From an uncultured Candidatus Saccharibacteria bacterium (GTDB taxonomy: Bacteria > Patescibacteriota > Minisyncoccia > UBA6257 > JAUSGH01), in assembly GCA_964360025.1 (NCBI GenBank), contig CAYHUD010000001.1, positions 3,922 to 67,921 on the forward strand: a stretch of DNA of 64,000 nucleotides, in the 5' to 3' direction. Numbering within the stretch: the first letter of the stretch is position 1; every line of letters begins with the position of its first letter. A program made the position numbers and the translations under genes. Below, piece after piece: positions 7,564 to 63,970 of this stretch. A model generated the notes under the pieces. That model saw only the letters and a list, made by a program, of their open reading frames with translations. It was not told the origin of the DNA and made no database searches.

Positions 7564-7636
7564 GCGCGTGTAGCTCAACGGTTAGAGCATCGAGCTTATA
7601 CCTCGGGGGTTCATGGTTCGAATCCATGCACGCGCA
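7564..7636 (+). tRNA. tRNA-Ile, apparent anticodon UAU (loop CTTATAC); no CCA encoded
   Basis: cloverleaf: acceptor GCGCGTG/CACGCGC, D GCTC/GAGC, T-arm CATGG-TTCGAAT-CCATG. Confidence 0.65.
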
Positions 7637-7652
7637 CAAAATAGCAGGTTTT

Positions 7653-49509: not shown

Positions 49510-50391
49510 ATGCACCAACGACTCGGACAACACTTTTTAATCAATAAATCGGCTATTGCGGAAACAATTGCCGCATTGACATTGGAGGAAAATGATTTAG
49601 TTGTGGAGATCGGGCCCGGGCATGGAGCTCTTACGCTACCCCTAGCTCAAAAATGTGTAGGTTTTAACTGCAAAATCATGGCTATTGAGAAAGACGCCGC
49701 GCTTGTGGATAACCTGTCAGAAACGATGCGGAAATACGGCAATATGGTGCAAATTATTGCCGGGGATGCGCTCGAAGAACTGCCTAAACTCGCAAAGCGC
49801 GAATCGCTGGGCGATGAAGACGGAAAAGGGTGGAAACTGGTGGGAAATATACCCTATTACATCACCGGAAAATTGCTAAGAATCATCGGGGAGCTAGAAA
49901 ATAAGCCCCACATTACGGTTTTGATGGTCCAAAAAGAAGTCGCGGAAAGGATAACAGCCACTCCAAAAGGGGGAATGAATCCCGTTAGAAGTAGCCCGCC
50001 CATAGGCCCTTCGGGCGCGCTTCGCGCGGGCGCGACTTCTAACGGGATGAATCTGCTTGCCGCCGCAACTCAATTCTGGAGCGATATTTCCATCATAAAA
50101 CGCTTAAAACCTAGCGATTTTGATCCGCCGCCAGAGGTGGACTCGGCAATAATTAAATTAAAGATCAAAGATCAAAGATCAAAAAGACGGGAGGCTGAGG
50201 GTTATTATAAATTGATCAAAATTGCCTTTAAACAACCAAGAAAGACGCTTTTGAATAACCTTGTAGATGGTCTTGATGATAAAAAAGAGGTGATTTTACA
50301 GAAAATCGCCGATTTGGGCTTTAACGAAAAAACTCGGGGGCAAGAATTGAGCGTGGAACAGCTTTTGGTTTTGGCGAGATCCTTCGGCTAA
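49510..50391 (+). CDS. rsmA: 16S rRNA (adenine1518/1519-N6)-dimethyltransferase RsmA/KsgA
   Basis: LGQHFL, VEIGPGHGALT, GNIPYYITGKLL; contains in-frame family D insertion; 3' end lies in repeat. Confidence 0.85.
   Translation: MHQRLGQHFLINKSAIAETIAALTLEENDLVVEIGPGHGALTLPLAQKCVGFNCKIMAIEKDAALVDNLSETMRKYGNMVQIIAGDALEELPKLAKRESLGDEDGKGWKLVGNIPYYITGKLLRIIGELENKPHITVLMVQKEVAERITATPKGGMNPVRSSPPIGPSGALRAGATSNGMNLLAAATQFWSDISIIKRLKPSDFDPPPEVDSAIIKLKIKDQRSKRREAEGYYKLIKIAFKQPRKTLLNNLVDGLDDKKEVILQKIADLGFNEKTRGQELSVEQLLVLARSFG
49979..50048. repeat. family D palindromic element inserted in frame in rsmA, flanked by ATGAAT direct duplication
   Basis: cccgttagaagt...acttctaacggg; encodes extra NPVRSSPPIGPSGALRAGATSNG between duplicated GMN codons. 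Confidence 0.7.
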
Positions 50392-50745: not shown

Positions 50746-50806
50746 CTAAGTGGTGCGAACCACTTATTCACATCTTGTTCACATCGGAGAATGATATAAT
50801 AAAGTA

Positions 50807-53344: not shown

Positions 53345-55366
53345 ATGTCCGGATTTATTAAAAAACACTATAAGACAATTATTTTGGCATCGCTTTTCGC
53401 GGTTCTAGTTTTGGGCGGCTTGGGAATAGGCACCGAAAATACCTTTGCCGCAGGAGATGACGCCGCTAAAGGAGGCGAGTCTCAAAAGGAAAGCGGGTGG
53501 ACAGCCGGATTCAAAGCCGCGATCGGCGCCCTCGTTATACCGATAATTTATAAAATACTTTACATTATCAGCTATATAGCCGCGATTATTTTCAAATTCG
53601 GCGGCTACCTCATAGACGCCGTCATCTCTCTCAATACGCAGATTCTGGGAAGCTCTATGGTAACCACCGGCTGGACGATCACGCGCGATTTTGCGAACCT
53701 TGGCTTCGTTCTCGCCATCATTTATATCGCCTTCGCCACGATGCTCCGCGTATCGTCTTTTGAGTTAAAAAAGTTCCTGCTCCGCCTCGTGATTATGGCT
53801 CTGCTTATCAACTTCAGCCTGACAATAGCGGGTGTGTTTATCAAGGCCTCCGATAAAGTCTCCGCTTTCTTTATTGAAAAAATAAGCGGCGAGGGCAGTC
53901 TTGCCGATTTCGCGCAAGTTCTTGCGGGACCCACCATTAAAGAAATTGCCGCTGGAGAGAAAACAGAAAAAGAGGAAGAATCCGGAATTATCTCTGCCGT
54001 AAAAACCGGCGCCCGCGTCGGGCTTGGAGTAACGACCTTTGGAATGTCTGAAATAGTCGGGGAGGCTCTTGATGCTTATAAATTATTAAGCGCCAAGAAT
54101 ACGGACGGCAATCTGGATCTTGGGGAATCGGCGCTCGTTATGGTAGGCAAGGTATTCTTCCTTACGGCGTTTACGGTGATGTCGGCGATTATCTTCTTTG
54201 CCATTGGCGTCATGGTTCTCGTCCGCTGGCTGTGGCTGGTCGTACTTCTGATTCTCGCGCCTTTCGCCTGGCTAGCCTTTGCCGTCCCGCAACTCACTAA
54301 ATACTTTGAACTCTGGTGGGATAAATTCTGGAAATGGACGCTCTATCTTCCTGTGGTTTTATTCTTTTTATACCTTGCCATGACGGCCACTCTCTCACCC
54401 AATATCAATTCCCCAACCACACCGTTCTTTTCCACCGCCAATCTCCCCGGATACCAAACAACGCCTATCGGCAATGATTTCGGTTCTTACGGTAAAATCA
54501 TCATCGCCATCGGCCTCATGGTCGCCGGACTGATCGTCGGAGAGAAAATGAGCATTGCCGGAGCGAAGACAGGACTTGCCGCGGCAAAAACCACGAGAGA
54601 CTGGGCGATAGGCAAAGTGAAGGGCGTTGCCACGGGTGTCGCCATGGGTGCTGCCGGATATGCTTTGAGAAATACCCTTGCGGGACACCAGGATAAAGAA
54701 GGAAGGACCCTGGGACAGCGCATCGCCGCCGGAATTTCCACCGTGCCTCTCCTTGGCACTGCGGCCGCGCGCGGACTGGACAGTATCTCCACGCGCCGCC
54801 CGCAGGAAGTTGATAATTCGCAGAAACAATATGCTAATATGAGCGACGCTCTCCTCATGTCCAGCGCTGAACAGGGCCTGTGGAGGTTCAGTGATCCGGA
54901 GACCGCTGCCGTTGTGCGGGAACTTGCTAAACGCAAAAAACTCGGTAAGCTGCCAACCGACCGACTAATGGAACTTGCCAAGAAAGGAAAAACCTATGGC
55001 GCGGAAAAGGAGGTTTATAAAGCCAGACCGGATCTCGCTGATAATCCGCTGGAGATATTCAAAGGCCTTAGCCCCGGACAAAAAGCCGAGCTGGCTCCGG
55101 ACGTTTACTATGAATCTAAGAAATCCAATGATCCTAAGAAGCGGGCGTTGGTACTTAGCTTGAAAGAAAAAGATTTGAGAGAAATCGCGGCCAAAGGATC
55201 GGACGAGGTTATTGATGCCATCACCGCAACCCTTAAAGAAGCCATAACGATGCATGCCGCCGGAGTAGGCGCGGGCGCGTTTACCCCGGCCGAAGAAGCC
55301 TCTTTAAAGGGGGTGCTGAAAGCTATAGATGACAATATCGGACTAAAATCAACGTTTATTTTCTAA
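53345..55366 (+). CDS. polytopic membrane protein, VirB6/TrbL-like candidate
   Basis: many TM helices, size and cluster context with VirB4. Confidence 0.4.
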   Translation: MSGFIKKHYKTIILASLFAVLVLGGLGIGTENTFAAGDDAAKGGESQKESGWTAGFKAAIGALVIPIIYKILYIISYIAAIIFKFGGYLIDAVISLNTQILGSSMVTTGWTITRDFANLGFVLAIIYIAFATMLRVSSFELKKFLLRLVIMALLINFSLTIAGVFIKASDKVSAFFIEKISGEGSLADFAQVLAGPTIKEIAAGEKTEKEEESGIISAVKTGARVGLGVTTFGMSEIVGEALDAYKLLSAKNTDGNLDLGESALVMVGKVFFLTAFTVMSAIIFFAIGVMVLVRWLWLVVLLILAPFAWLAFAVPQLTKYFELWWDKFWKWTLYLPVVLFFLYLAMTATLSPNINSPTTPFFSTANLPGYQTTPIGNDFGSYGKIIIAIGLMVAGLIVGEKMSIAGAKTGLAAAKTTRDWAIGKVKGVATGVAMGAAGYALRNTLAGHQDKEGRTLGQRIAAGISTVPLLGTAAARGLDSISTRRPQEVDNSQKQYANMSDALLMSSAEQGLWRFSDPETAAVVRELAKRKKLGKLPTDRLMELAKKGKTYGAEKEVYKARPDLADNPLEIFKGLSPGQKAELAPDVYYESKKSNDPKKRALVLSLKEKDLREIAAKGSDEVIDAITATLKEAITMHAAGVGAGAFTPAEEASLKGVLKAIDDNIGLKSTFIF

Positions 55367-55378
55367 CTTGTAAAAACG

Positions 55379-56515
55379 ATGGACAACAAAACCCTACGCA
55401 CAACTTTCCGTGCACTGCCAAGCGACATCAAAGACTGGCTTTTTTCCGAAAAAGTAACCTATTCGGTAGCAGAGTTAAATACCCGCCTTAATATAAAAGG
55501 CGAGCGTGCAGGTGTTGTTGCTAAACTGGTAGCGCGGCTTGTCGTCCAGGATTTGGATACTCGCGATTTCGTGAACGAATTGGCGATAGAGTTAAATGTC
55601 AGCAATTCCGCCGCTAAGGCCATCACTAAAGAAGTTGAGGAAAAGGTTCTACACCCGATAGAAGCATCGCTTCGCGCCAATCTGGGAATTGATGTGGCTA
55701 TGCTCCATATGGGAAACGAGGTTTCCCTGTCATCGATTACGCCCCTACCGGATGAAGCCGAAAAAACTCCGGCGCCGCGTACGCCTTTTTCCGTGCCTGA
55801 CGCCGCTAAAAGCGAAGCCACCCCACATATCTTCGCTCCGATGGCGCCTAAAGTTTCCGACACAAAAACCCCCTCCGGTCCTTTTATACTACACACCGAA
55901 CAAGAACCGGCGAAACCCATCGCGCCGCCCATAAACGCCCCGCAAAGACCCACTTTCTCTATAAAAATTCCTCTGGCGCAAAAGAAATACGGCGCTCCTC
56001 CCGTAACAGCTCGCATTGAAACCGGCGCACCCGAAACCAGAACTCCCGAGACGCAAAAGACATCCGAATTCCAGGGCTCACGGATCATTCCGGTACCGCC
56101 CTTGCGCCAGAGCCTCACCATACAGCCCCCGCGCCGTCCGGTTTCATTTGAACCAATACAACCAAGTACAGCCAATCAGGCTCCCTTGAAAATAACACCT
56201 CCGCCACTCCGCCGCCTGCCCCCACTTCCGCCTCTTATAAAACCACAAAACCAACAAATCACTACCGCGCCGTCAGCGGCTCCCAAACAAGAGATTTCCA
56301 TTCTACCCATAAATCCCGCCCTTCCTGTAAAACCAAGCGTCCCCGCTCCGATTCCGGCCAGACCGGCGGCGCCGCCTTTAACATTGCCGCCCAAAGTTTC
56401 TTCGCCCGCCGCGCCGAAACCACCCATGCCCCAGATTCCGCTAAAAACACCGACAAATACGGTGAACATCCAAAAAGTAGTCCACTATTCCGACTTTTTC
56501 ACAAAGTTACAATAA
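55379..56515 (+). CDS. Pro-rich hypothetical protein
   Basis: PPxP-rich low-complexity C-terminal half. Confidence 0.45.
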   Translation: MDNKTLRTTFRALPSDIKDWLFSEKVTYSVAELNTRLNIKGERAGVVAKLVARLVVQDLDTRDFVNELAIELNVSNSAAKAITKEVEEKVLHPIEASLRANLGIDVAMLHMGNEVSLSSITPLPDEAEKTPAPRTPFSVPDAAKSEATPHIFAPMAPKVSDTKTPSGPFILHTEQEPAKPIAPPINAPQRPTFSIKIPLAQKKYGAPPVTARIETGAPETRTPETQKTSEFQGSRIIPVPPLRQSLTIQPPRRPVSFEPIQPSTANQAPLKITPPPLRRLPPLPPLIKPQNQQITTAPSAAPKQEISILPINPALPVKPSVPAPIPARPAAPPLTLPPKVSSPAAPKPPMPQIPLKTPTNTVNIQKVVHYSDFFTKLQ

Positions 56516-56516
56516 A

Positions 56517-56990
56517 ATGCAATTTCAAGTCCCACAATTTATAGAAACGGAGGACACCATCATCGGCTCCATTACGATCAGGCAATTTGTCTATATGGGC
56601 ATTGCCGGACTCATCAGTTTCGTGTCTTTCTTTTTTTTAAACACTACTTTGTGGCTGATATTTACCGGCTTTGTAGGCACGATCGCCGGAGCTCTGGCTT
56701 TCATTAAATATAACGGCAGGCCGTTATCTAAAATCATCCTCGCCATGTTCAACTATCTCTGGAAGCCGAAAATGTTTTTATGGAGGAGAAAAGAAGAGTT
56801 GGAAGCCCTGCGCGCCGAGGAGGCAGCCAAAAGAGGATCTCTGCTCCAGAACTTGTGGCTGCGCGTCACTGCCGGGAAAGAAGCCATACCCAAACGCGCT
56901 GATGCGCCCAAGTCTCTTGAAGAACGCTATCAAGTGGTGGAGAAGATTAGTGGGGAGAGGGATATGGCAAAGAGGGTGGACTATCGGTAA
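56517..56990 (+). CDS. PrgI/VirB3-like small membrane protein
   Basis: MQFQVPQFIETEDTIIGSITIRQFVYMGIAG... typical PrgI-type N-terminus + 2 TM. Confidence 0.5.
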   Translation: MQFQVPQFIETEDTIIGSITIRQFVYMGIAGLISFVSFFFLNTTLWLIFTGFVGTIAGALAFIKYNGRPLSKIILAMFNYLWKPKMFLWRRKEELEALRAEEAAKRGSLLQNLWLRVTAGKEAIPKRADAPKSLEERYQVVEKISGERDMAKRVDYR

Positions 56991-57206
56991 ATCATGAATC
57001 GACTTAAATCCCTCCCTCAACCCGCTGCGCTCGCCCAGCCGCTCGCTTGCTTGTCCTCGCCGCTCGCCCGCCGTGCGCTACGCGCCTAAAACGGCGGACC
57101 GTGCTCTCACGGCTCCGGGGGTTTCGGAGAGGAATTTAAGCCGATTCATTAATAGTCAATCCCCGCGCAATTCCTGAATTAAGAATTTGTTTGTATAATA
57201 AAGTAT

Positions 57207-57866
57207 ATGCCACAACAAAAAGAAGCTCGGCCGACGCAAGAATTTGTAGAAATTGATCGCGCGGAACAAGGTGTGCTTGTTTTAAAAAACGGCTCTTTGC
57301 GCCAAATACTTTTAGTATCCGGGGTTAATTTTGATCTGAAATCCGAGGAAGAACAGCAGATGATTATTTCCTCGTATCAGGCGATGCTTAATTCCCTGCG
57401 CTTTTCCCTGCAAATTTTCGTCCATTCCCGAAAAATCAACATAGAATCGTATTTGGCAAAATTGGAAGCGCGCCTCGCGGAAGAAACGAGCGAGCTTCTA
57501 AAAAACCAGATTACGGAATATATGGAGTTTATCCGCTCTTTCGTAGGACAAAATCCCATCATGACGAAGTCGTTTTTCGTAGTTGTGCCCTTTGATCCCA
57601 TCGTCATACCTGGATCAGAAACAAAAACCGGAAAAAGATTATTTGGTCTTTTTAGAAAATCCTCCGCAGAGGGAAATACCGAAGCAAAACAGCATGAACT
57701 CCAGGAAAATATGCGCCAGCTTTCGCAAAGAGTGTCGCAAGTCGTTGCCGCGATATCGCAAATCGGCCTGCGGGCCGTCCCCCTGCAGAACGAAGAGGTG
57801 ATTGAGCTGTTTTATAATCTTTACAATCCCGAAGCGCAGGAGAAAAAAAGTCTGCCAACCGCATAA
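57207..57866 (+). CDS. VirB4-family N-terminal domain encoded as a separate ORF
   Basis: LVLKNGSLRQILLVSGVNFDLKSEEEQQMIISSYQAMLNSLRFSLQIFV parallels VirB4 N-termini. Confidence 0.5.
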   Translation: MPQQKEARPTQEFVEIDRAEQGVLVLKNGSLRQILLVSGVNFDLKSEEEQQMIISSYQAMLNSLRFSLQIFVHSRKINIESYLAKLEARLAEETSELLKNQITEYMEFIRSFVGQNPIMTKSFFVVVPFDPIVIPGSETKTGKRLFGLFRKSSAEGNTEAKQHELQENMRQLSQRVSQVVAAISQIGLRAVPLQNEEVIELFYNLYNPEAQEKKSLPTA

Positions 57867-57873
57867 TAATAAA

Positions 57874-59589
57874 ATGGAAAAAGAACTGGAAAATTTAATA
57901 GCGCCTCCGGCCGTAGAAATCAATTCTGACTATTTGAAAGTCGGTAATAAATTTACGCGTTCTTTATTCCTTTTCACCTATCCGCGCTATCTTTCAACCG
58001 GCTGGTTTTCTCCCGTGATCAATATGCCCGAGCTTTTGGATATCTCCATCTTTATCCACCCCGTTGATACCGCTCTGGCGCTTAAGAATTTGAGAAAGAA
58101 GGTAACGCAACTGCAGTCGCAGATCAATGAATCCGCTGAAAAGGGTCTGGTCCGGAATCCCGTTTTAGAAACCGCCTTTCAGGACATTGAAAAACTCCGC
58201 GATGATCTCCAAAGATCGCAGGAAAACCTTTTCAATGTTGGTGTCTACATGACCCTTTACGCCGACTCCGTGGACGAACTGAATAAACTTGCCTCCAAGA
58301 TTACAAACTTTCTTGAAGGACGCCTTGTCTATACGAAACCGGCGGCTTTCCAACAGGTAGAGGGTTGGTCTTCCACGCTCCCTATCGGTACGGACAAGCT
58401 TACCATCCAGACTCCGCTCAATACTTCCCCCATCTCCTCGTTTTTCCCGTTCATTTCAGCAAATCTTACCTCGGAAGAAGGTATTCTATACGGCATCAAT
58501 ACGGCTAATAACACCTTAATCATTTTTGACCGCTTCTCGCTGGAGAATGCCAATATGGTCGTTTTCGCTAAATCCGGCGCGGGAAAATCATATTTTACCA
58601 AGCTGGAGGCCCTGCGACTTTTAATGTTGGGGACTGATGTGATGATTATTGACCCGGAAAACGAATATGAGAATCTTGCGAATACTGTGGGCGGCAGTTT
58701 CTTTAAGATCTCTCTGGCATCAGAGCATCGCATCAACCCGATGGATATTCCGGTTATTCCCCAAGACGAAGACCCGTCTGATGCCTTAAAATCGCATTTC
58801 GCTAATCTTTCCGGACTGCTGAAGCTGATGATGGGCGGATCTGACCCGCAGAAAGGCGGGATCACACCGGAAGAAGACGCTATTCTAGACCGAGCCATCT
58901 CGGAAACATACGCCGCGCGCGACATTTTGCCCGGCAAAGACTTCTCGGGCATAGAAGCGCCTCTACTTGAAGATTTGGAAGTGGTTCTGCGGGGGATTGA
59001 AGGGGGAACAGGACTTGCGGAACGGCTCTACAAATTTACTAAAGGCAACTATTCCGGTTTTACCAACCAGAAGACAAACGTAGATGTTAAAAATCGTCTT
59101 TTGGTTTTCTCTATCCGCGATCTGGAAGAAGAACTGCGCCCGATAGCCATTTATATAATTTTAAACTTCATCTGGAACATTATCAGGGCGGAGTTAAAAC
59201 GGCGCGTCGTGATGATTGACGAGGCCTGGTGGATGATGAAAAATCCCGACAGCGCCCTTTTCCTTTTCGGACTTGTCAAACGCGCCCGCAAATACTATCT
59301 GGGAGTTACAACCATCACACAGGACGTAGAGGACTTCCTGCTCTCGCCCTACGGACGACCGATTATTACCAATTCGTCCCTGCAACTACTCCTAAAACAA
59401 GCTCCGGCAATGATTGACCTCATCACCAAAACCTTTAACCTCTCCGAAGGCGAGAAAAATTATCTTCTGGAGGTTCCTGTGGGGCAAGGACTTTTCATTG
59501 CCGGCCTCCAACATGCCGCTATTCAAATAGTAGCTTCATATCTTGAGGATCAGATTGTGACCACGAAGCCGCAGGAGATAGCAGGATAG
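57874..59589 (+). CDS. VirB4/TrbE-family type IV secretion ATPase (ATPase portion)
   Basis: Walker A AKSGAGKSYF, Walker B VVMIDEAWWMM. Confidence 0.8.
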   Translation: MEKELENLIAPPAVEINSDYLKVGNKFTRSLFLFTYPRYLSTGWFSPVINMPELLDISIFIHPVDTALALKNLRKKVTQLQSQINESAEKGLVRNPVLETAFQDIEKLRDDLQRSQENLFNVGVYMTLYADSVDELNKLASKITNFLEGRLVYTKPAAFQQVEGWSSTLPIGTDKLTIQTPLNTSPISSFFPFISANLTSEEGILYGINTANNTLIIFDRFSLENANMVVFAKSGAGKSYFTKLEALRLLMLGTDVMIIDPENEYENLANTVGGSFFKISLASEHRINPMDIPVIPQDEDPSDALKSHFANLSGLLKLMMGGSDPQKGGITPEEDAILDRAISETYAARDILPGKDFSGIEAPLLEDLEVVLRGIEGGTGLAERLYKFTKGNYSGFTNQKTNVDVKNRLLVFSIRDLEEELRPIAIYIILNFIWNIIRAELKRRVVMIDEAWWMMKNPDSALFLFGLVKRARKYYLGVTTITQDVEDFLLSPYGRPIITNSSLQLLLKQAPAMIDLITKTFNLSEGEKNYLLEVPVGQGLFIAGLQHAAIQIVASYLEDQIVTTKPQEIAG

Positions 59590-59618: not shown

Positions 59619-60026
59619 ATGGAAAATGGGCCGAAAATTACTGGCGTAGAGGCGTTTCTGCTCCTCGTTTTTGTGGGTTTTTTGGATTTAATAGGAGTTT
59701 TGTTATTGCTTATAGGTCTGGACGACTTCTTTCTTCTGGATTCCGGAACAGCCGCGACTCAGTTTTATCTCCGCCGCAAGGGGGTAAAAGCGACCTATGA
59801 CCTCGCCATGGGGCTCGTAGAAATGATTCCCTATGTCGGCGCGCTTCCGCTTAAAACTATTGGTGTTATTATGGTTATATGGGCCGATTGGCGGGGGAGT
59901 GAATCGCGGGCTGAATCAGCCGCGGAAGAACTGCAATACATAACGAAGCCGGAGACGGCACTGACATCGTTTGAATATACGCCACGTGGGTCCGGGAAGA
60001 TTGATAACAGCAAAAAAGCGGCTTAA
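59619..60026 (+). CDS. small membrane protein (2 TM)
   Basis: ORF in cluster. Confidence 0.45.
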   Translation: MENGPKITGVEAFLLLVFVGFLDLIGVLLLLIGLDDFFLLDSGTAATQFYLRRKGVKATYDLAMGLVEMIPYVGALPLKTIGVIMVIWADWRGSESRAESAAEELQYITKPETALTSFEYTPRGSGKIDNSKKAA

Positions 60027-60031
60027 GCTAT

Positions 60032-60715
60032 ATGAAAAATTATTTTTTAAAATTAAGTTTGTTTATAACGCTTTTTTCGCTTTTGACAACCGTCGTCGTC
60101 CACGCCCAGGCAAACGGGGCCAAATTCTTTGTTTCCTGGCGTTCAGAAAACTATGTTCCCGGATGGTATGCCGGGAAAATACTGCCATCTCCGGGCAGTT
60201 CGGTGATAATCGGTTTTGAATTGATTGAGGGGGACAAGGCGGTAAATATCACACAAAACGAGATACGATGGTTCGCAAACGATGTCCTATTCCAGAAAGG
60301 GTTCGGTCTAAAAACAGTGAAATACGCCATCCCCACCACGCGCACATCTAACTCCCAAAAGATAAAGATAGTCGTCGGCGGCTATAAGGGCGCTGATATT
60401 TCCAAATTTATTGATATTCCGGTTGCCAGTGCGGAGGTAGTCGTGCCGGTTCCCTATGTGGGCGGCGCCCTCTCTCCCGGAAAACACACCCTGAGTTCAC
60501 TGCTCTACTTCTGGAATATAAGGGAGTTATTCGCAACTTTGCTAGAATGGTCTTATAACGGCACAGAAATCTCTTCCGCGGGAAATAATAATTCTCTGGA
60601 AATAGAAGTTCCTGCCACGGCGAGCGGTGGCACCCTGCGATTAAGCGTCCAAGCGACAAAAATAGGGGACGAAGCAACTTTTGCCAAAAATAACGCGGTG
60701 TTATTGATTAAATAA
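60032..60715 (+). CDS. secreted hypothetical protein
   Basis: signal peptide MKNYFLKLSLFITLFSLLTTVVVHA. Confidence 0.5.
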   Translation: MKNYFLKLSLFITLFSLLTTVVVHAQANGAKFFVSWRSENYVPGWYAGKILPSPGSSVIIGFELIEGDKAVNITQNEIRWFANDVLFQKGFGLKTVKYAIPTTRTSNSQKIKIVVGGYKGADISKFIDIPVASAEVVVPVPYVGGALSPGKHTLSSLLYFWNIRELFATLLEWSYNGTEISSAGNNNSLEIEVPATASGGTLRLSVQATKIGDEATFAKNNAVLLIK

Positions 60716-60717
60716 TT

Positions 60718-61341
60718 ATGCAGAATTTATTTTCTAACATACTACCTATAGCGCGCGCTCAAGTCTCTACCGAGCTGGTCCGGGGGGTAAATACTTTTTA
60801 TGAATGGAGTATTATGATCGCGGGAATCCTCGCCTTCGGGCTAATTGTCGTCGGCGGAATACAATATATCGTAAGCGCCGGTAATCCCGGATCGCAATCT
60901 GATGCCAAAGACCGCATTATCCAAGCTGTTACCGGCCTCGTCCTGCTCCTATCCGGAGTTTTTATACTTTCCACGGTTAACCCGCGGCTGACTAATATTC
61001 CCACCATCAGTTCATCTCCGCAACAAGAACCCCAAAAAATATTAAACCCTCTGGATGCTAATCAAGAAGAAAGGGAGGCGTTTTATAGAGAAAAAATTAA
61101 AAACAATGAGACCTACAGAGCCAGTTTAAGATTTACCATCAAAGATAAAATCATGAAGCTTGCGCCAAGCGAGAAAACCGCCGTTTTAAACGCCTATCAG
61201 ACGCTTGTGGAGGATGCAATCAGCGATACACAGATAAAATCTTTTTTAATGAGATCTCCTCTTAATTTCAGAGAGGATGAGGTGGTTTATTTTATGGGTT
61301 TATCGTCTAAAGAAAGATTTGAATTATTACAAGGAAAATGA
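60718..61341 (+). CDS. VirB2/TrbC pilin-like membrane protein candidate
   Basis: N-terminal leader, two hydrophobic helices separated by short polar loop. Confidence 0.35.
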   Translation: MQNLFSNILPIARAQVSTELVRGVNTFYEWSIMIAGILAFGLIVVGGIQYIVSAGNPGSQSDAKDRIIQAVTGLVLLLSGVFILSTVNPRLTNIPTISSSPQQEPQKILNPLDANQEEREAFYREKIKNNETYRASLRFTIKDKIMKLAPSEKTAVLNAYQTLVEDAISDTQIKSFLMRSPLNFREDEVVYFMGLSSKERFELLQGK

Positions 61342-62441
61342 AAAGTATCTTGAAAATTTTAGGCGTCCTATCGGTCTTAGCTATTATAGGCGCGAGCGGT
61401 TATTTTATCTACAAGGCATTTTTTACAGCTCCGGCGACTACTACCATAGCAAAACCCGAAACCATAGACCAAAAAAAAGCTGAGTTGGGGGTTAGATCGC
61501 CCGATCTAAACGTCTTCAGTAAAAACAAAGCCCTATCCTACTGGATTGACGAAAAGACGGGCGCCATTTACTACGCCGATCCTACGGGAACAATCTTTAA
61601 ACTATTCGGCGCCGAAAGAGAAGAGGAGATTAGCACGCAAAGCCTGCCCGACTTCCACTCCCTGACACCTTCGCCTGACGGCACTAAGGCGCTTGCCGAA
61701 TTTGGTTATCCTTTTGAACCGGTTTTTGCCGTATTTAACACTGAAAATAATAGCTGGGAAAGATTGCCGCAGGGGACGATTGCTGCCGATTTTGACCCAA
61801 CATCAAAACAAATAGCTTTTGTCACGAACGGAACGTCAGGATCACTCAAAATATTAAACCTTGCTGATAAAAAATCAGTAACTATCACCGCCGTCCCCGC
61901 GGGAGATCTGATTCTATCTTGGATAAAGAGCGATAAAATATACCTGCAGTCAAAACCGACATCTGCCTCCTCTCTAGAGACGTGGTCCGCTGACCCTGTC
62001 AAAAAAACTTTAAAGAAATTGGATATTTTGGGGTCTGCTTTGGATACGATTATGCTTAGGTGGTTCAAAAAATCGGGATTAGGATTAAGATTAAGCGCGC
62101 CTACGGTCAACACAACCAATCTTTCCCTGGTTCATGTGGCTGGAGCAGAGCTCTTAGGCCTCCCATTTAAAACACTCCCCGATAAATGCGCTTTCGCCAA
62201 TGCTGATCTGCTTTATTGCGCCGTTCCCAACAATCTCCCTGCGCGCGCCAACCTGCCCGACGATTATTTCCAGAAAAAGATTTTTACCACCGACTCCATA
62301 ATTTCATATAATTTGGAGACTCTGGAAGAAAGGGTGTTGTTTAGCGGAGAAGTGGACGCCACAGAGCTTAATATTCTCGGCAATCAGTTATTTTTCATCA
62401 ATAGATATGATGAAAAAATATATTCGCTAAAAATAAATTAG
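61338..62441 (+). CDS. membrane-anchored hypothetical protein with periplasmic beta-rich domain
   Basis: ATGA overlap with upstream gene; N-terminal TM. Confidence 0.5.
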   Translation: MKSILKILGVLSVLAIIGASGYFIYKAFFTAPATTTIAKPETIDQKKAELGVRSPDLNVFSKNKALSYWIDEKTGAIYYADPTGTIFKLFGAEREEEISTQSLPDFHSLTPSPDGTKALAEFGYPFEPVFAVFNTENNSWERLPQGTIAADFDPTSKQIAFVTNGTSGSLKILNLADKKSVTITAVPAGDLILSWIKSDKIYLQSKPTSASSLETWSADPVKKTLKKLDILGSALDTIMLRWFKKSGLGLRLSAPTVNTTNLSLVHVAGAELLGLPFKTLPDKCAFANADLLYCAVPNNLPARANLPDDYFQKKIFTTDSIISYNLETLEERVLFSGEVDATELNILGNQLFFINRYDEKIYSLKIN

Positions 62442-62495: not shown

Positions 62496-62975
62496 TTAAA
62501 TGGGCTTTACGATGACGTAACGCGTGGGTCCTGATCCAACACTCTCCGTCTTAACATCGGGCCGCGTAGAGAGTTCTGTGTGCACCAAACGCCTTTCATA
62601 AGCATTCATCGCCGGCAAAGACACCTCTGCTTTACTTAAAAGCGCTTTTTTAGCGGCGGCTTTGGCGATTTCCACAATAAGGCGCTCTCTTTCTTTCCGA
62701 TAATTGTTAACATCAACAAAAATGTATTCGGCGCCCTCTTTTCTGGACGATAAGCGTAAAATTACCTCTAGATCAGAAACGATTTTGGGCACCCAGGGCT
62801 TAATCCATTCGTCTTCGTTGATGAAAATCCTAATCCGACGGCCTTCGGGCTCGGCCTCAACACTCACGTCGGAAAAACCCATCAATTCCAGCATTTTTTT
62901 AGTTGTTTCAATGATTTTCTCCATCCCGTTAGAGATGTCTGCCGCATTAATAGTTTGCTTTGCTATGTTTTCCAT
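62496..62975 (-). CDS. jag: Jag/KhpB-like RNA-binding protein (KH + R3H)
   Basis: C-terminal R3H (ERRLVHTELS) and position downstream of yidC. Confidence 0.7.
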   Translation of the reverse strand: MENIAKQTINAADISNGMEKIIETTKKMLELMGFSDVSVEAEPEGRRIRIFINEDEWIKPWVPKIVSDLEVILRLSSRKEGAEYIFVDVNNYRKERERLIVEIAKAAAKKALLSKAEVSLPAMNAYERRLVHTELSTRPDVKTESVGSGPTRYVIVKPI

Positions 62976-63010
62976 ATTTTTAATATTTAGAATTTGTTTG
63001 ATAGATATCT

Positions 63011-63718
63011 CTAACGGGATCCATTAGTGTTGGGTAAATTTAACTGCTTATTAATAATCCTCTGCTGTAATACGGAAAACGCAGACGATGTCATCCAATA
63101 AACACCTACCGCCGCCGGCAAACTCCATAAAATAACCAGGGTAAGGACGGGGCCGATATAAGACATCTTCTTTGCGATACGGGACTGATCTGTCTCCTCG
63201 CCGGGAAGCGTATGCGGAAGACTTAAGACGCTTTGATAGTACTGAAAAAGGGCTGCTAAAACCACAATCACTATACTCTTTTCCTGGAGATCAATCAAGC
63301 CCAGGGAGATTGTATTTAAATGTCCCGGATTGGAGATAAATGAATAAAGAACGTCCAGAGTGCCATCCGTAAATCCGCTCATAAATACTTTATAGAGGGC
63401 GATAAGTATCGGCAATTGGACCAGAATCAATAAAAATCCGGAAAACGGATTAACTTTATGGTTTTTATAGAGCTCCATCAAAGCGTGGGCCTGTTTTTCT
63501 TTGTCATCTTTATGAACATGTTGGATTCTTGCCACCTCCGGCTGTATTTTTTGCATAATGGTCTGCTGTTTGAAGCTTTTATAGAAAAGCGGGTAAAAAA
63601 TCAGACGAATAACTATGGTCAATAAAACAATGGCGATGCCGAGGTCGCTAAAAGTAACCGTGTTATATAAAGAGATAAGGATATTGAATAAGGGAATATA
63701 AAGCAGTGTTTGGAACAT
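63011..63718 (-). CDS. yidC: YidC/Oxa1-family membrane protein insertase (short form)
   Basis: 5 TM pattern, rnpA-yidC-jag order. Confidence 0.8.
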   Translation of the reverse strand: MFQTLLYIPLFNILISLYNTVTFSDLGIAIVLLTIVIRLIFYPLFYKSFKQQTIMQKIQPEVARIQHVHKDDKEKQAHALMELYKNHKVNPFSGFLLILVQLPILIALYKVFMSGFTDGTLDVLYSFISNPGHLNTISLGLIDLQEKSIVIVVLAALFQYYQSVLSLPHTLPGEETDQSRIAKKMSYIGPVLTLVILWSLPAAVGVYWMTSSAFSVLQQRIINKQLNLPNTNGSR

Positions 63719-63727
63719 AAATGGGGT

Positions 63728-63970
63728 TTAAGGTTTGGGGTTTAAAAAGGTAATTTCAAGCTCGCGCAGTAACTGCTCCTTGTCGATTTTGGCAGCAGCG
63801 GGATAAACAATAAAAATATAATCATAAAGGGGTATTTCCGTCAGTTTTGCGCTTAAAAATCCAAAAATGATCCTTTTTATGTGATTTCTGACCACAGAAC
63901 GCTTATCTACTTTTGTAGATACTATAACACTAAAACGAGGATTGGTCCCTGTGGATGTGAAAATTTTCAA
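63728..63970 (-). CDS. rnpA: ribonuclease P protein component (may extend beyond listed start)
   Basis: FSVIVSTKVDKRSVVRNHIKRI motif; adjacent to yidC. Confidence 0.7.
   Translation of the reverse strand: MKIFTSTGTNPRFSVIVSTKVDKRSVVRNHIKRIIFGFLSAKLTEIPLYDYIFIVYPAAAKIDKEQLLRELEITFLNPKP

Follow-up and report, generated by a model that had tools for sequence, protein, structure and literature searches.

Based on the results below, we suggest that the two consecutive ORFs at 57207–59589 of the window (the whole 64,000-nucleotide stretch of DNA that was analysed) are a natural two-gene VirB4, a TrsD-like protein followed by a short-form VirB4 ATPase, in a normal chromosomal T4SS locus of the Paceibacteria/Parcubacteria type found in Patescibacteria (probability about 0.9). 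The arrangement is ordinary, conserved and already published for Patescibacteria. In Quinonero-Coronel et al. 2025 (PMC12102498), TrsD homologues beside virB4 are described as the most abundant T4SS component of this group. They are given there as remotely homologous to the VirB4 N-terminus, with 2,272 homologues in Patescibacteria, 1,664 of them adjoining virB4. The features of the locus are as follows.

49510–50391, ksgA
56517–56990, + strand, PrgI-family (VirB3-like) membrane protein, 157 aa (Pfam PF12666, E 1.2e-10, above cut-off)
57194–57205, + strand, TATAATAAAGTA, -10-like box abutting the ORF1 start codon (exact 12-mer search)
57207–57866, + strand, ORF1, TrsD-like protein, 219 aa (ATG 57207 to TAA 57864–57866, read from the sequence)
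57843–57849, + strand, A7 homopolymer near the end of ORF1 (read from the sequence)
57864–57872, + strand, three tandem in-frame TAA stops terminating ORF1 (read directly from the sequence)
57874–59589, + strand, ORF2, short-form VirB4 ATPase, 571 aa (ATG start, MEKELENL...; profile and PDB matches)
58567–58590, + strand, Walker A, AKSGAGKS, ORF2 residues 232–239 (motif search)
59206–59223, + strand, Walker B, VVMIDE, ORF2 residues 445–450 (motif search)
60718–61341, + strand, VirB2-like T4SS pilin (Pfam PF18895 T4SS_pilin, E 4.6e-9)
62496–63970, jag, yidC and rnpA

The sequence-only reading had placed ORF1 at these coordinates with its TAA at 57864–57866, quoted a peptide from it and let the ATPase portion restart at ATG 57874, 7 nt later; all of this was confirmed. 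It had also noticed that ORF1 resembles the N-terminal domain of VirB4 proteins, and this likeness, seen there by eye, is statistical (E 5.8e-12 to 5.2e-7). In a profile search, ORF1 was matched by the NCBIfam TrsD/TraD model NF041427 (E 5.8e-12, 45.9 bits). Since this score lies far below the curated cut-off of 200 bits, we call the product TrsD-like and not a member of the curated family. Three VirB4 models matched ORF1 at their N-termini, namely Mbov_0397 VirB4 (E 1.4e-9), TIGR00929 VirB4_CagE (E 6.4e-8) and CD1110 VirB4 (E 5.2e-7, positions 7–111 of 752). The gene layout is also that of TrsD/TraD, a protein of ~200–220 aa encoded just 5′ of a VirB4-type ATPase; here it is 219 aa and the gap is 7 nt. 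A local Pfam scan of ORF1 gave no significant family, and PF26593 and PF27097 are precomputed annotations on its homologues.

ORF1 has 1316 homologues, of which the best 120 are all stand-alone proteins of 213–311 aa; those retrieved are from Harrisonbacteria, Wolfebacteria and Paceibacterota MAGs. The best protein match is 77% identical, and a relative of ORF1 is encoded in 442 species genomes. Across 25 homologues at 54–66% identity, 47 alignment columns are invariant. The AF2 model of ORF1 was of moderate confidence (pLDDT 74). Its 14 best PDB fold matches were all R388 TrwK/VirB4 chains (probability 0.99–1.00), with a TM-score of 0.46 to TrwK. No PDB sequence was matched when the ORF1 alignment was used as a profile; the likeness to TrwK emerged from the fold comparison only. 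Judging by these matches, ORF1 is a TrsD-like protein that represents the first half of the N-terminal domain of VirB4, detached from the rest, and corresponds to roughly positions 1–185 of a canonical VirB4.

ORF2 was matched above the curated cut-off of 325 bits by the CD1110 VirB4 model NF045971 (E 4.9e-112, 375.6 bits, positions 187–728 of 752), as well as by Pfam TraG P-loop, AAA_10 and DUF87. With both Walker motifs in a RecA-like C-terminal domain and T4SS genes as neighbours, it has the marks of the VirB4 family. The crystallised VirB4 C-terminal domain (PDB 4AG5) matched ORF2 residues 223–563 (E 2.1e-39), and the first ~220 residues of ORF2 are therefore the latter half of the N-terminal domain of VirB4. 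The polypeptide does not hold a complete N-terminal domain, as it starts at position 187 of 752 (CD1110) or 238 of 792 (TIGR00929), and the part that it lacks is encoded by ORF1. ORF2 thus consists of the remaining half of the N-terminal domain and a complete C-terminal ATPase domain. The sequence-only reading had described an N-terminal ORF and an ATPase ORF. The two ORFs stand, but the cut falls inside the N-terminal domain, whose second half is in ORF2.

The profile coverage of the two ORFs is complementary and non-overlapping (7–111 for ORF1 and 187–728 for ORF2 of the 752 positions of CD1110), and the cut lies within the N-terminal domain near position 185–235 of a ~790-position VirB4. 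It falls in a short linker of variable sequence that is flanked by the conserved motifs ELFYNLYNPE and IAPPAxE. The 7 nt that separate ORF1 from ORF2 (57867–57873) are TAA TAA A, and with respect to ORF1 the second ORF is read in the +1 frame (57874 − 57207 = 667). No convincing terminator was found between the two ORFs.

To compare split and fused forms, as the sequence-only reading had proposed, 79 evaluable related Patescibacteria loci were used. The split state was found in 71 of them, where the homologue of ORF1 ends and is followed by a short virB4 in the same orientation; the two closest relatives (L002 and L003) are both split. The relative frame is +1 in 41 of the 71 split loci, +2 in 17 and 0 in 13, and the spacers range from overlaps up to ~490 nt. 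With all three frames and differing spacers, many independent junction sequences therefore keep one architecture. In the remaining 8 loci a single gene of ~800 aa is fused in frame precisely at the ORF1/ORF2 cut point, by way of a short linker of variable sequence, which shows that the two ORFs are halves of the same protein. Furthermore, clustering at 50% identity gave 3335 clusters with E ≤ 1e-3, and among the 150 best representatives 149 are stand-alone proteins. Together with the published description of TrsD plus VirB4, these counts strongly support the natural two-polypeptide VirB4, one of the two options that had been offered from the sequence.

An alternative view is that ORF1, a descendant of the VirB4 N-terminus, acts alone, for example as an assembly factor or a regulator, and forms no protomer with ORF2. 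According to PMC12102498, TrsD is without an experimentally assigned function in any system, and the TrsD homologues of Gracilibacteria are reported not to adjoin virB4; in addition, some cluster representatives carry extra C-terminal extensions of up to 443 aa. We consider this view improbable. Close relatives switch between the fused and the split form at the same linker, which implies that the two parts work in one complex. ORF2 is without the first ~185 positions that are present in all canonical VirB4s, and adjacency to virB4 is strict (71/71 split loci).

Two other explanations concern the A7 run. The run lies 15 nt 5′ of the stop and the frame of ORF2 is open across it, so that +1 frameshifting or transcriptional slippage on A7 might yield a minor fused TrsD-VirB4 isoform beside the two separate proteins. 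An A7 run is short for transcriptional slippage. A −1 frameshift on A_AAA_AAG was rejected, as translation would then pass into a wrong, closed frame. Relatives have neither a conserved homopolymer nor a fixed frame relation, since all three frames and spacers of up to ~490 nt occur among them, and we regard such recoding as very unlikely.

Just as little weight can be given to an assembly or sequencing artefact, in which an extra A in the run (57843–57849) would falsely divide one continuous virB4. On paper, removal of one A gives a continuous ORF1–ORF2 frame of 793 aa, because the frame of ORF2 is open upstream as far as TTG 57802; however, 24 codons without a stop are nothing out of the ordinary. 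The ORF1-frame tail 3′ of the run, EKKSLPTA*, fits the family pattern EKKxLxIAK*, while the hypothetical fused linker EKKVCQPHNNKMEKE (VCQPHNNK) is unlike that of any relative, including the linkers of true fused relatives. With the split being the majority state among relatives as well, this explanation was rejected.

The second option of the sequence-only reading, a recent nonsense or frameshift mutation that broke a single virB4 and inactivated the ATPase of the cluster, is hardly credible and was also rejected: the fused form in 8 of the 79 loci makes a single-gene state possible in the lineage, but ORF1 ends in tandem stops together with a frame change, the disruption is shared by L002, L003 and the other split loci with unrelated junctions, the ATG of ORF2 sits where the short virB4 genes of relatives start, both ORFs are full length and conserved without decay, the Walker motifs are intact, and TrsD in this arrangement is, according to PMC12102498, essential in a cultivated relative, Ca. 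Southlakia epibionticum ML1 (Wang et al. 2023). The locus should be annotated as a TrsD-like protein and a short-form VirB4, not as a virB4 pseudogene, and this genome should be regarded as having an intact T4SS.

The fused relatives form two groups with distinct linkers (EKKTLEIAKEasmGKTvTDIIAPP versus IAKTPE...NILAP). It is conceivable, though doubtful, that in this clade of Patescibacteria the split state is ancestral and selected and that fused TrsD-VirB4 was re-formed at least twice; the number of fusion events is drawn from these linkers and an NJ tree without bootstrap support. If so, TrsD would be a detachable sub-domain of VirB4, and a separate TrsD could uncouple the stoichiometry or assembly order of the VirB3-binding and dimerisation module from the ATPase ring. 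The natural split/fused polymorphism would then offer a natural experiment on the workings of the VirB4 N-terminal domain. In the sections of PMC12102498 that we draw on, there is apparently no discussion of fused TrsD-VirB4 variants or of such a polymorphism. The fused relatives also identify TrsD with the first half of the N-terminal domain of VirB4 and show precisely which linker tolerates a cut, which could guide constructs for structural and biochemical work on monoderm VirB4 proteins.

The surroundings are those of a chromosomal T4SS. The PrgI-family gene lies immediately 5′ of the split VirB4, and a PrgI homologue precedes the ORF1 homologue in all 70 related loci with enough upstream DNA. 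A pilin homologue was found downstream in 47 related loci. The T4SS locus, with ORF1 and ORF2 co-oriented, adjoins the rnpA-yidC-jag block, and dnaA is outside the window. According to PMC12102498, the T4SS of Patescibacteria lies near dnaA/rnpA/ksgA. The window accordingly holds VirB4, TrsD, PrgI/VirB3 and a VirB2-like pilin near ksgA and rnpA, and no relaxase was found among the scanned neighbouring genes.

Directly 5′ of ORF1, TATAATAAAGTA may be the promoter of the trsD-like/virB4 transcription unit. The exact 12-mer has two copies in the window, the other one (50795–50806) being directly 5′ of ATG 50807, and the expected count is 0.29 even when one mismatch is permitted. When the regions 5′ of 50807 and 57207 were aligned, they had nothing in common except the 12-mer. 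A sigma-70 promoter scan gave no site on the + strand ahead of either ORF, and an Rfam scan of the window gave tRNAs only.

For the two-gene VirB4, we suggest the following mechanism. ORF1 and ORF2 would be translated separately from one mRNA, and with the stop of ORF1 and the start of ORF2 only 7 nt apart, termination-reinitiation coupling is plausible. ORF2 would be initiated at ATG 57874 in an A/T-rich context typical of the genome. The search for a ribosome-binding site, which had been recommended as a check, gave no Shine-Dalgarno sequence, and in its start context ORF2 is like other genes of the window, the majority of which also have none. The two products may then associate non-covalently and rebuild a VirB4-like protomer. 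In R388 VirB4 (TrwK), the N-terminal domain (residues 15–400) mediates dimerisation and VirB3 wraps around it (PMC9259494). By analogy, it is most likely through the TrsD-like subunit that the PrgI/VirB3-like protein and the membrane are contacted and that protomers touch each other. The hexameric ATPase driving the essential T4SS of Patescibacteria would be made up of ORF2.

The homology of TrsD and VirB4 is attributed by PMC12102498 to Guglielmini et al. 2014, in the main text of which the term TrsD is absent; the FEMS 2025 review of T4SS mentions neither TrsD nor a split VirB4. The TrsD-like and VirB4 genes of Patescibacteria described in PMC12102498 are the same gene pair with the same PrgI/VirB3-like protein, VirB2-like pilin and ksgA/rnpA/yidC neighbours near the origin. 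There is no essential difference, and the window is one more instance.

The order of a PrgI gene, a TrsD-like gene and a short VirB4 (DUF87) gene is shared with plasmids of Firmicutes and Actinomycetota, and was found in Weissella pNH9449-1 (annotated trsD), C. perfringens pJFP838A and a Miltoncostaea plasmid. Also among the closest known systems are TrsD/TrsE of staphylococcal pGO1/pSK41 (MPF-FATA, pGO1 subclass) and other TrsD/TraD genes of Firmicutes. In these plasmid systems, as here, a VirB4 N-terminus homologue of ~200–220 aa is encoded between a small membrane protein and a short VirB4/DUF87 ATPase. However, the similarity is remote (24–38% identity, tblastn), and the plasmid systems are conjugative with a relaxase, whereas the present locus is chromosomal.

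Compared with canonical single-chain VirB4 (R388 TrwK; the CD1110 family of CTn2; TIGR00929), ORF1 and ORF2 jointly span the profile, but as two polypeptides cut within the N-terminal domain. The opposite extreme of gene organisation is the mycoplasma ICE ATPase Mbov_0397, a VirB3-VirB4 fusion of 894 positions. It carries in one polypeptide the same three modules that are separate here, with the PrgI-like protein corresponding to positions 12–99, ORF1 to 103–217 and ORF2 to 293–891.

The VirB4 split in this window is genuine but ordinary, a natural arrangement of a TrsD-like gene and a short virB4 in a patescibacterial T4SS. Re-reading of the sequence confirmed the coordinates that the sequence-only reading had given for both genes, and the peptide quoted in it is present in the ORF1 translation.

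Features of the split virB4 region (window coordinates; Walker motifs by ORF2 residue)
56517-56990: PrgI-family (VirB3-like) gene, directly upstream of ORF1
57207-57866, + strand: ORF1, TrsD-like, ATG 57207 to TAA 57864-57866, 219 aa, read from sequence
57843-57849: run of seven A (A7) near the end of ORF1
57874-59589, + strand: ORF2, short-form VirB4 ATPase, ATG 57874, 571 aa, read from sequence
ORF2 residues 232-239: Walker A, AKSGAGKS
ORF2 residues 445-450: Walker B, VVMIDE
60718-61341: VirB2-like T4SS pilin gene (PF18895), downstream of ORF2

Based on profile searches, the top-scoring family for ORF1 was TrsD/TraD (E 5.8e-12), at 45.9 bits, far under the curated cut-off of 200. Further matches of ORF1 fell at the N-terminus of several VirB4 models: the CD1110 family (positions 7-111 of 752, E 5e-7), TIGR00929 (19-186 of 792, E 6e-8) and Mbov_0397 (103-217 of 894, E 1e-9). 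ORF2 matched the CD1110 family at positions 187-728 of 752 with 375.6 bits (cut-off 325) and, judged by this match, is a bona fide VirB4. Since the matches of the two ORFs occupy separate positions, their predicted products are complementary and cover one VirB4 without overlap. An AlphaFold2 model of ORF1 (input alignment of 25 sequences; pLDDT 74, pTM 0.62) was compared with the PDB. TrwK/VirB4 chains from the R388 T4SS took all of the first 14 places among the fold matches (probability 0.99-1.00, best E 4e-4), and the remaining matches had a probability of at most 0.35; a sequence-profile search of the PDB with ORF1 gave no match. The crystallised VirB4 C-terminal domain (4AG5) aligns with ORF2 residues 223-563. 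Because the N-terminal domain of R388 TrwK spans residues 15-400 (PMC9259494), the cut lies in the middle of this domain. Thus, the proposed resemblance of ORF1 to the VirB4 N-terminus is borne out by the profile matches, but the split does not fall at the boundary between the N-terminal and ATPase domains, as had been supposed.

Protein searching with ORF1 yielded 1316 homologues, and the best 120 were all stand-alone proteins (213-311 aa, 54-77% identity) from Patescibacteria MAGs. When all 1.84 billion cluster representatives were scanned, 3335 clusters matched; among the best 150, 149 were stand-alone and the remaining one had 797 aa. ORF1 relatives are encoded in 442 GTDB species genomes, from which 80 related loci were fetched and 79 could be evaluated. 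In 71 of these, the ORF1 homologue terminates and is followed by a short virB4 on the same strand, in relative frame +1 (41 loci), +2 (17) or 0 (13), with junctions ranging from 4-nt overlaps to spacers of ~490 nt. As junction sequences, frames and spacers vary between relatives, the comparison shows that the split architecture itself is maintained, which supports the natural two-polypeptide VirB4 that had been one of two alternatives offered. In four relatives (L013, L021, L056 and L079), ~420-490 nt separate the stop of the trsD-like gene from the start of virB4, an unusually long spacer.

The other eight loci (L005, L017, L020, L022, L025, L040, L050 and L072) encode a single fused protein of 793-810 aa (703 aa in L017; cut by the locus end in L020); in most of them the match runs from ~6001 onward. 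In them a short variable linker, flanked by the conserved motifs ELFYNLYNPE and IAPPAxE, connects the ORF1 and ORF2 parts in frame. The existence of such relatives proves that ORF1 and ORF2 correspond, as orthologues, to the two parts of a single protein. A neighbour-joining tree without bootstrap resolved the fused forms into two groups, both nested among split forms and each with its own linker type; the window itself grouped with L002 and L003, which are split loci. Fused TrsD-VirB4 genes are apparently secondary fusions in a mostly split clade and suggest repeated re-fusion.

The main remaining rival is that TrsD is an independent accessory factor; it is opposed by the fact that fused and split forms interconvert and that the two genes are strictly adjacent in 71/71 split loci. 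In R388, the VirB4 N-terminal domain is wrapped by VirB3, and VirB4 dimers are held entirely by N-terminal domains (PMC9259494). By this analogy, the TrsD-like polypeptide of a two-polypeptide VirB4 would pair non-covalently with the first ~220 residues of ORF2, supplying the contact to the PrgI/VirB3-like protein and the membrane and contributing to the protomer-protomer interface, and ORF2 would form the ATPase ring.

The second alternative offered, a nonsense mutation turning the ATPase gene into a pseudogene, is rejected, being contradicted by the split common to 71/79 relatives and by the conservation of ORF1 homologues (47 invariant columns in 25 sequences at 54-66% identity). ORF1 closes with three tandem in-frame stops, as its own TAA is followed by the seven bases TAA TAA A that separate the two ORFs, and ORF2 lies in the +1 frame. 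Neither a single inherited lesion nor a recurring sequencing error can account for junctions so diverse among relatives. With one A fewer in the A7 run, the two ORFs would read as a continuous 793-aa ORF, and the ORF2 frame stays open upstream to 57802. However, an error here is rejected as improbable, since the ORF1 frame past A7 reads EKKSLPTA-stop, conforming to the family tail EKKxLxIAK-stop, and the hypothetical linker EKKVCQPHNNKMEKE resembles nothing, real fused relatives included. Recoding is rejected as improbable because a -1 slip on A7 leads into a closed frame.

Start contexts are A/T-rich and without a Shine-Dalgarno sequence in most window genes, including ORF2, so the missing ribosome-binding site there is normal for this genome, in which translation initiation seems to proceed largely without Shine-Dalgarno sequences. 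Among the start regions of 24 genes (e.g., 56517, 57207, 57874, 62975 and 63718), the anti-SD duplex energy was ~0 for most. The exact 12-mer TATAATAAAGTA has just two copies in the 64 kb (50795-50806 and 57194-57205; expected count 0.29 even allowing one mismatch), both abutting the start codon (ATG) of a gene of the T4SS, orf258 (50807) and ORF1 (57207). It looks like a shared, putative -10 box; the T4SS would then have two transcription units, whose mRNAs would be leaderless or have very short leaders. ARAGORN placed a tRNA-Ile with anticodon TAT (UAU) at 7564-7637; in most bacteria, AUA is read by a lysidine-modified CAU tRNA.

A PrgI-family gene precedes the ORF1 homologue in 70/70 relatives with enough upstream sequence. 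In the window its 157-aa product carries the Pfam PrgI domain at residues 5-85 only; the ~70 aa beyond the domain form a charged C-terminal extension, and a 216-nt non-coding gap separates the gene from ORF1. Between a large membrane protein (53345-55366) and prgI lies a 378-aa ORF (55379-56515) without a Pfam match, whose long C-terminal half is proline-rich and of low complexity; 35 related loci carry a homologue upstream of their trsD-like gene, and the product may be a cell-envelope-spanning T4SS component. The pilin gene overlaps the start of the next ORF (61338-62441) by 4 nt (ATGA); neither this ORF nor others at 59619-60715 had a Pfam family. The T4SS cluster is preceded by ksgA and uvrD and followed, on the opposite strand, by jag, yidC and rnpA.

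TrsD is a component of MPF-FATA systems of the pGO1 subclass. The searched text of the patescibacterial T4SS survey by Quinonero-Coronel et al. (2025; PMC12102498) reports 2,272 TrsD homologues, 1,664 of them adjoining virB4, one such homologue being essential in Ca. Southlakia epibionticum ML1, and places those T4SS near dnaA, rnpA and ksgA. The window has exactly the same arrangement, which is thus already described and gains a new instance. Fused TrsD-VirB4 genes are not mentioned in that searched text, and the modest added value here lies in the comparison: the in-frame fusions that occur in nature define TrsD as the VirB4 N-terminal domain's first half. The order PrgI, TrsD-like, DUF87/VirB4 is also found on Weissella cibaria plasmid pNH9449-1 (where trsD is annotated), C. 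perfringens plasmid pJFP838A and a Miltoncostaea (Actinomycetota) plasmid. The opposite extreme is seen in mycoplasma ICE ATPases of the Mbov_0397 family, whose single chain combines all three modules (PrgI-like, TrsD-like and ATPase).
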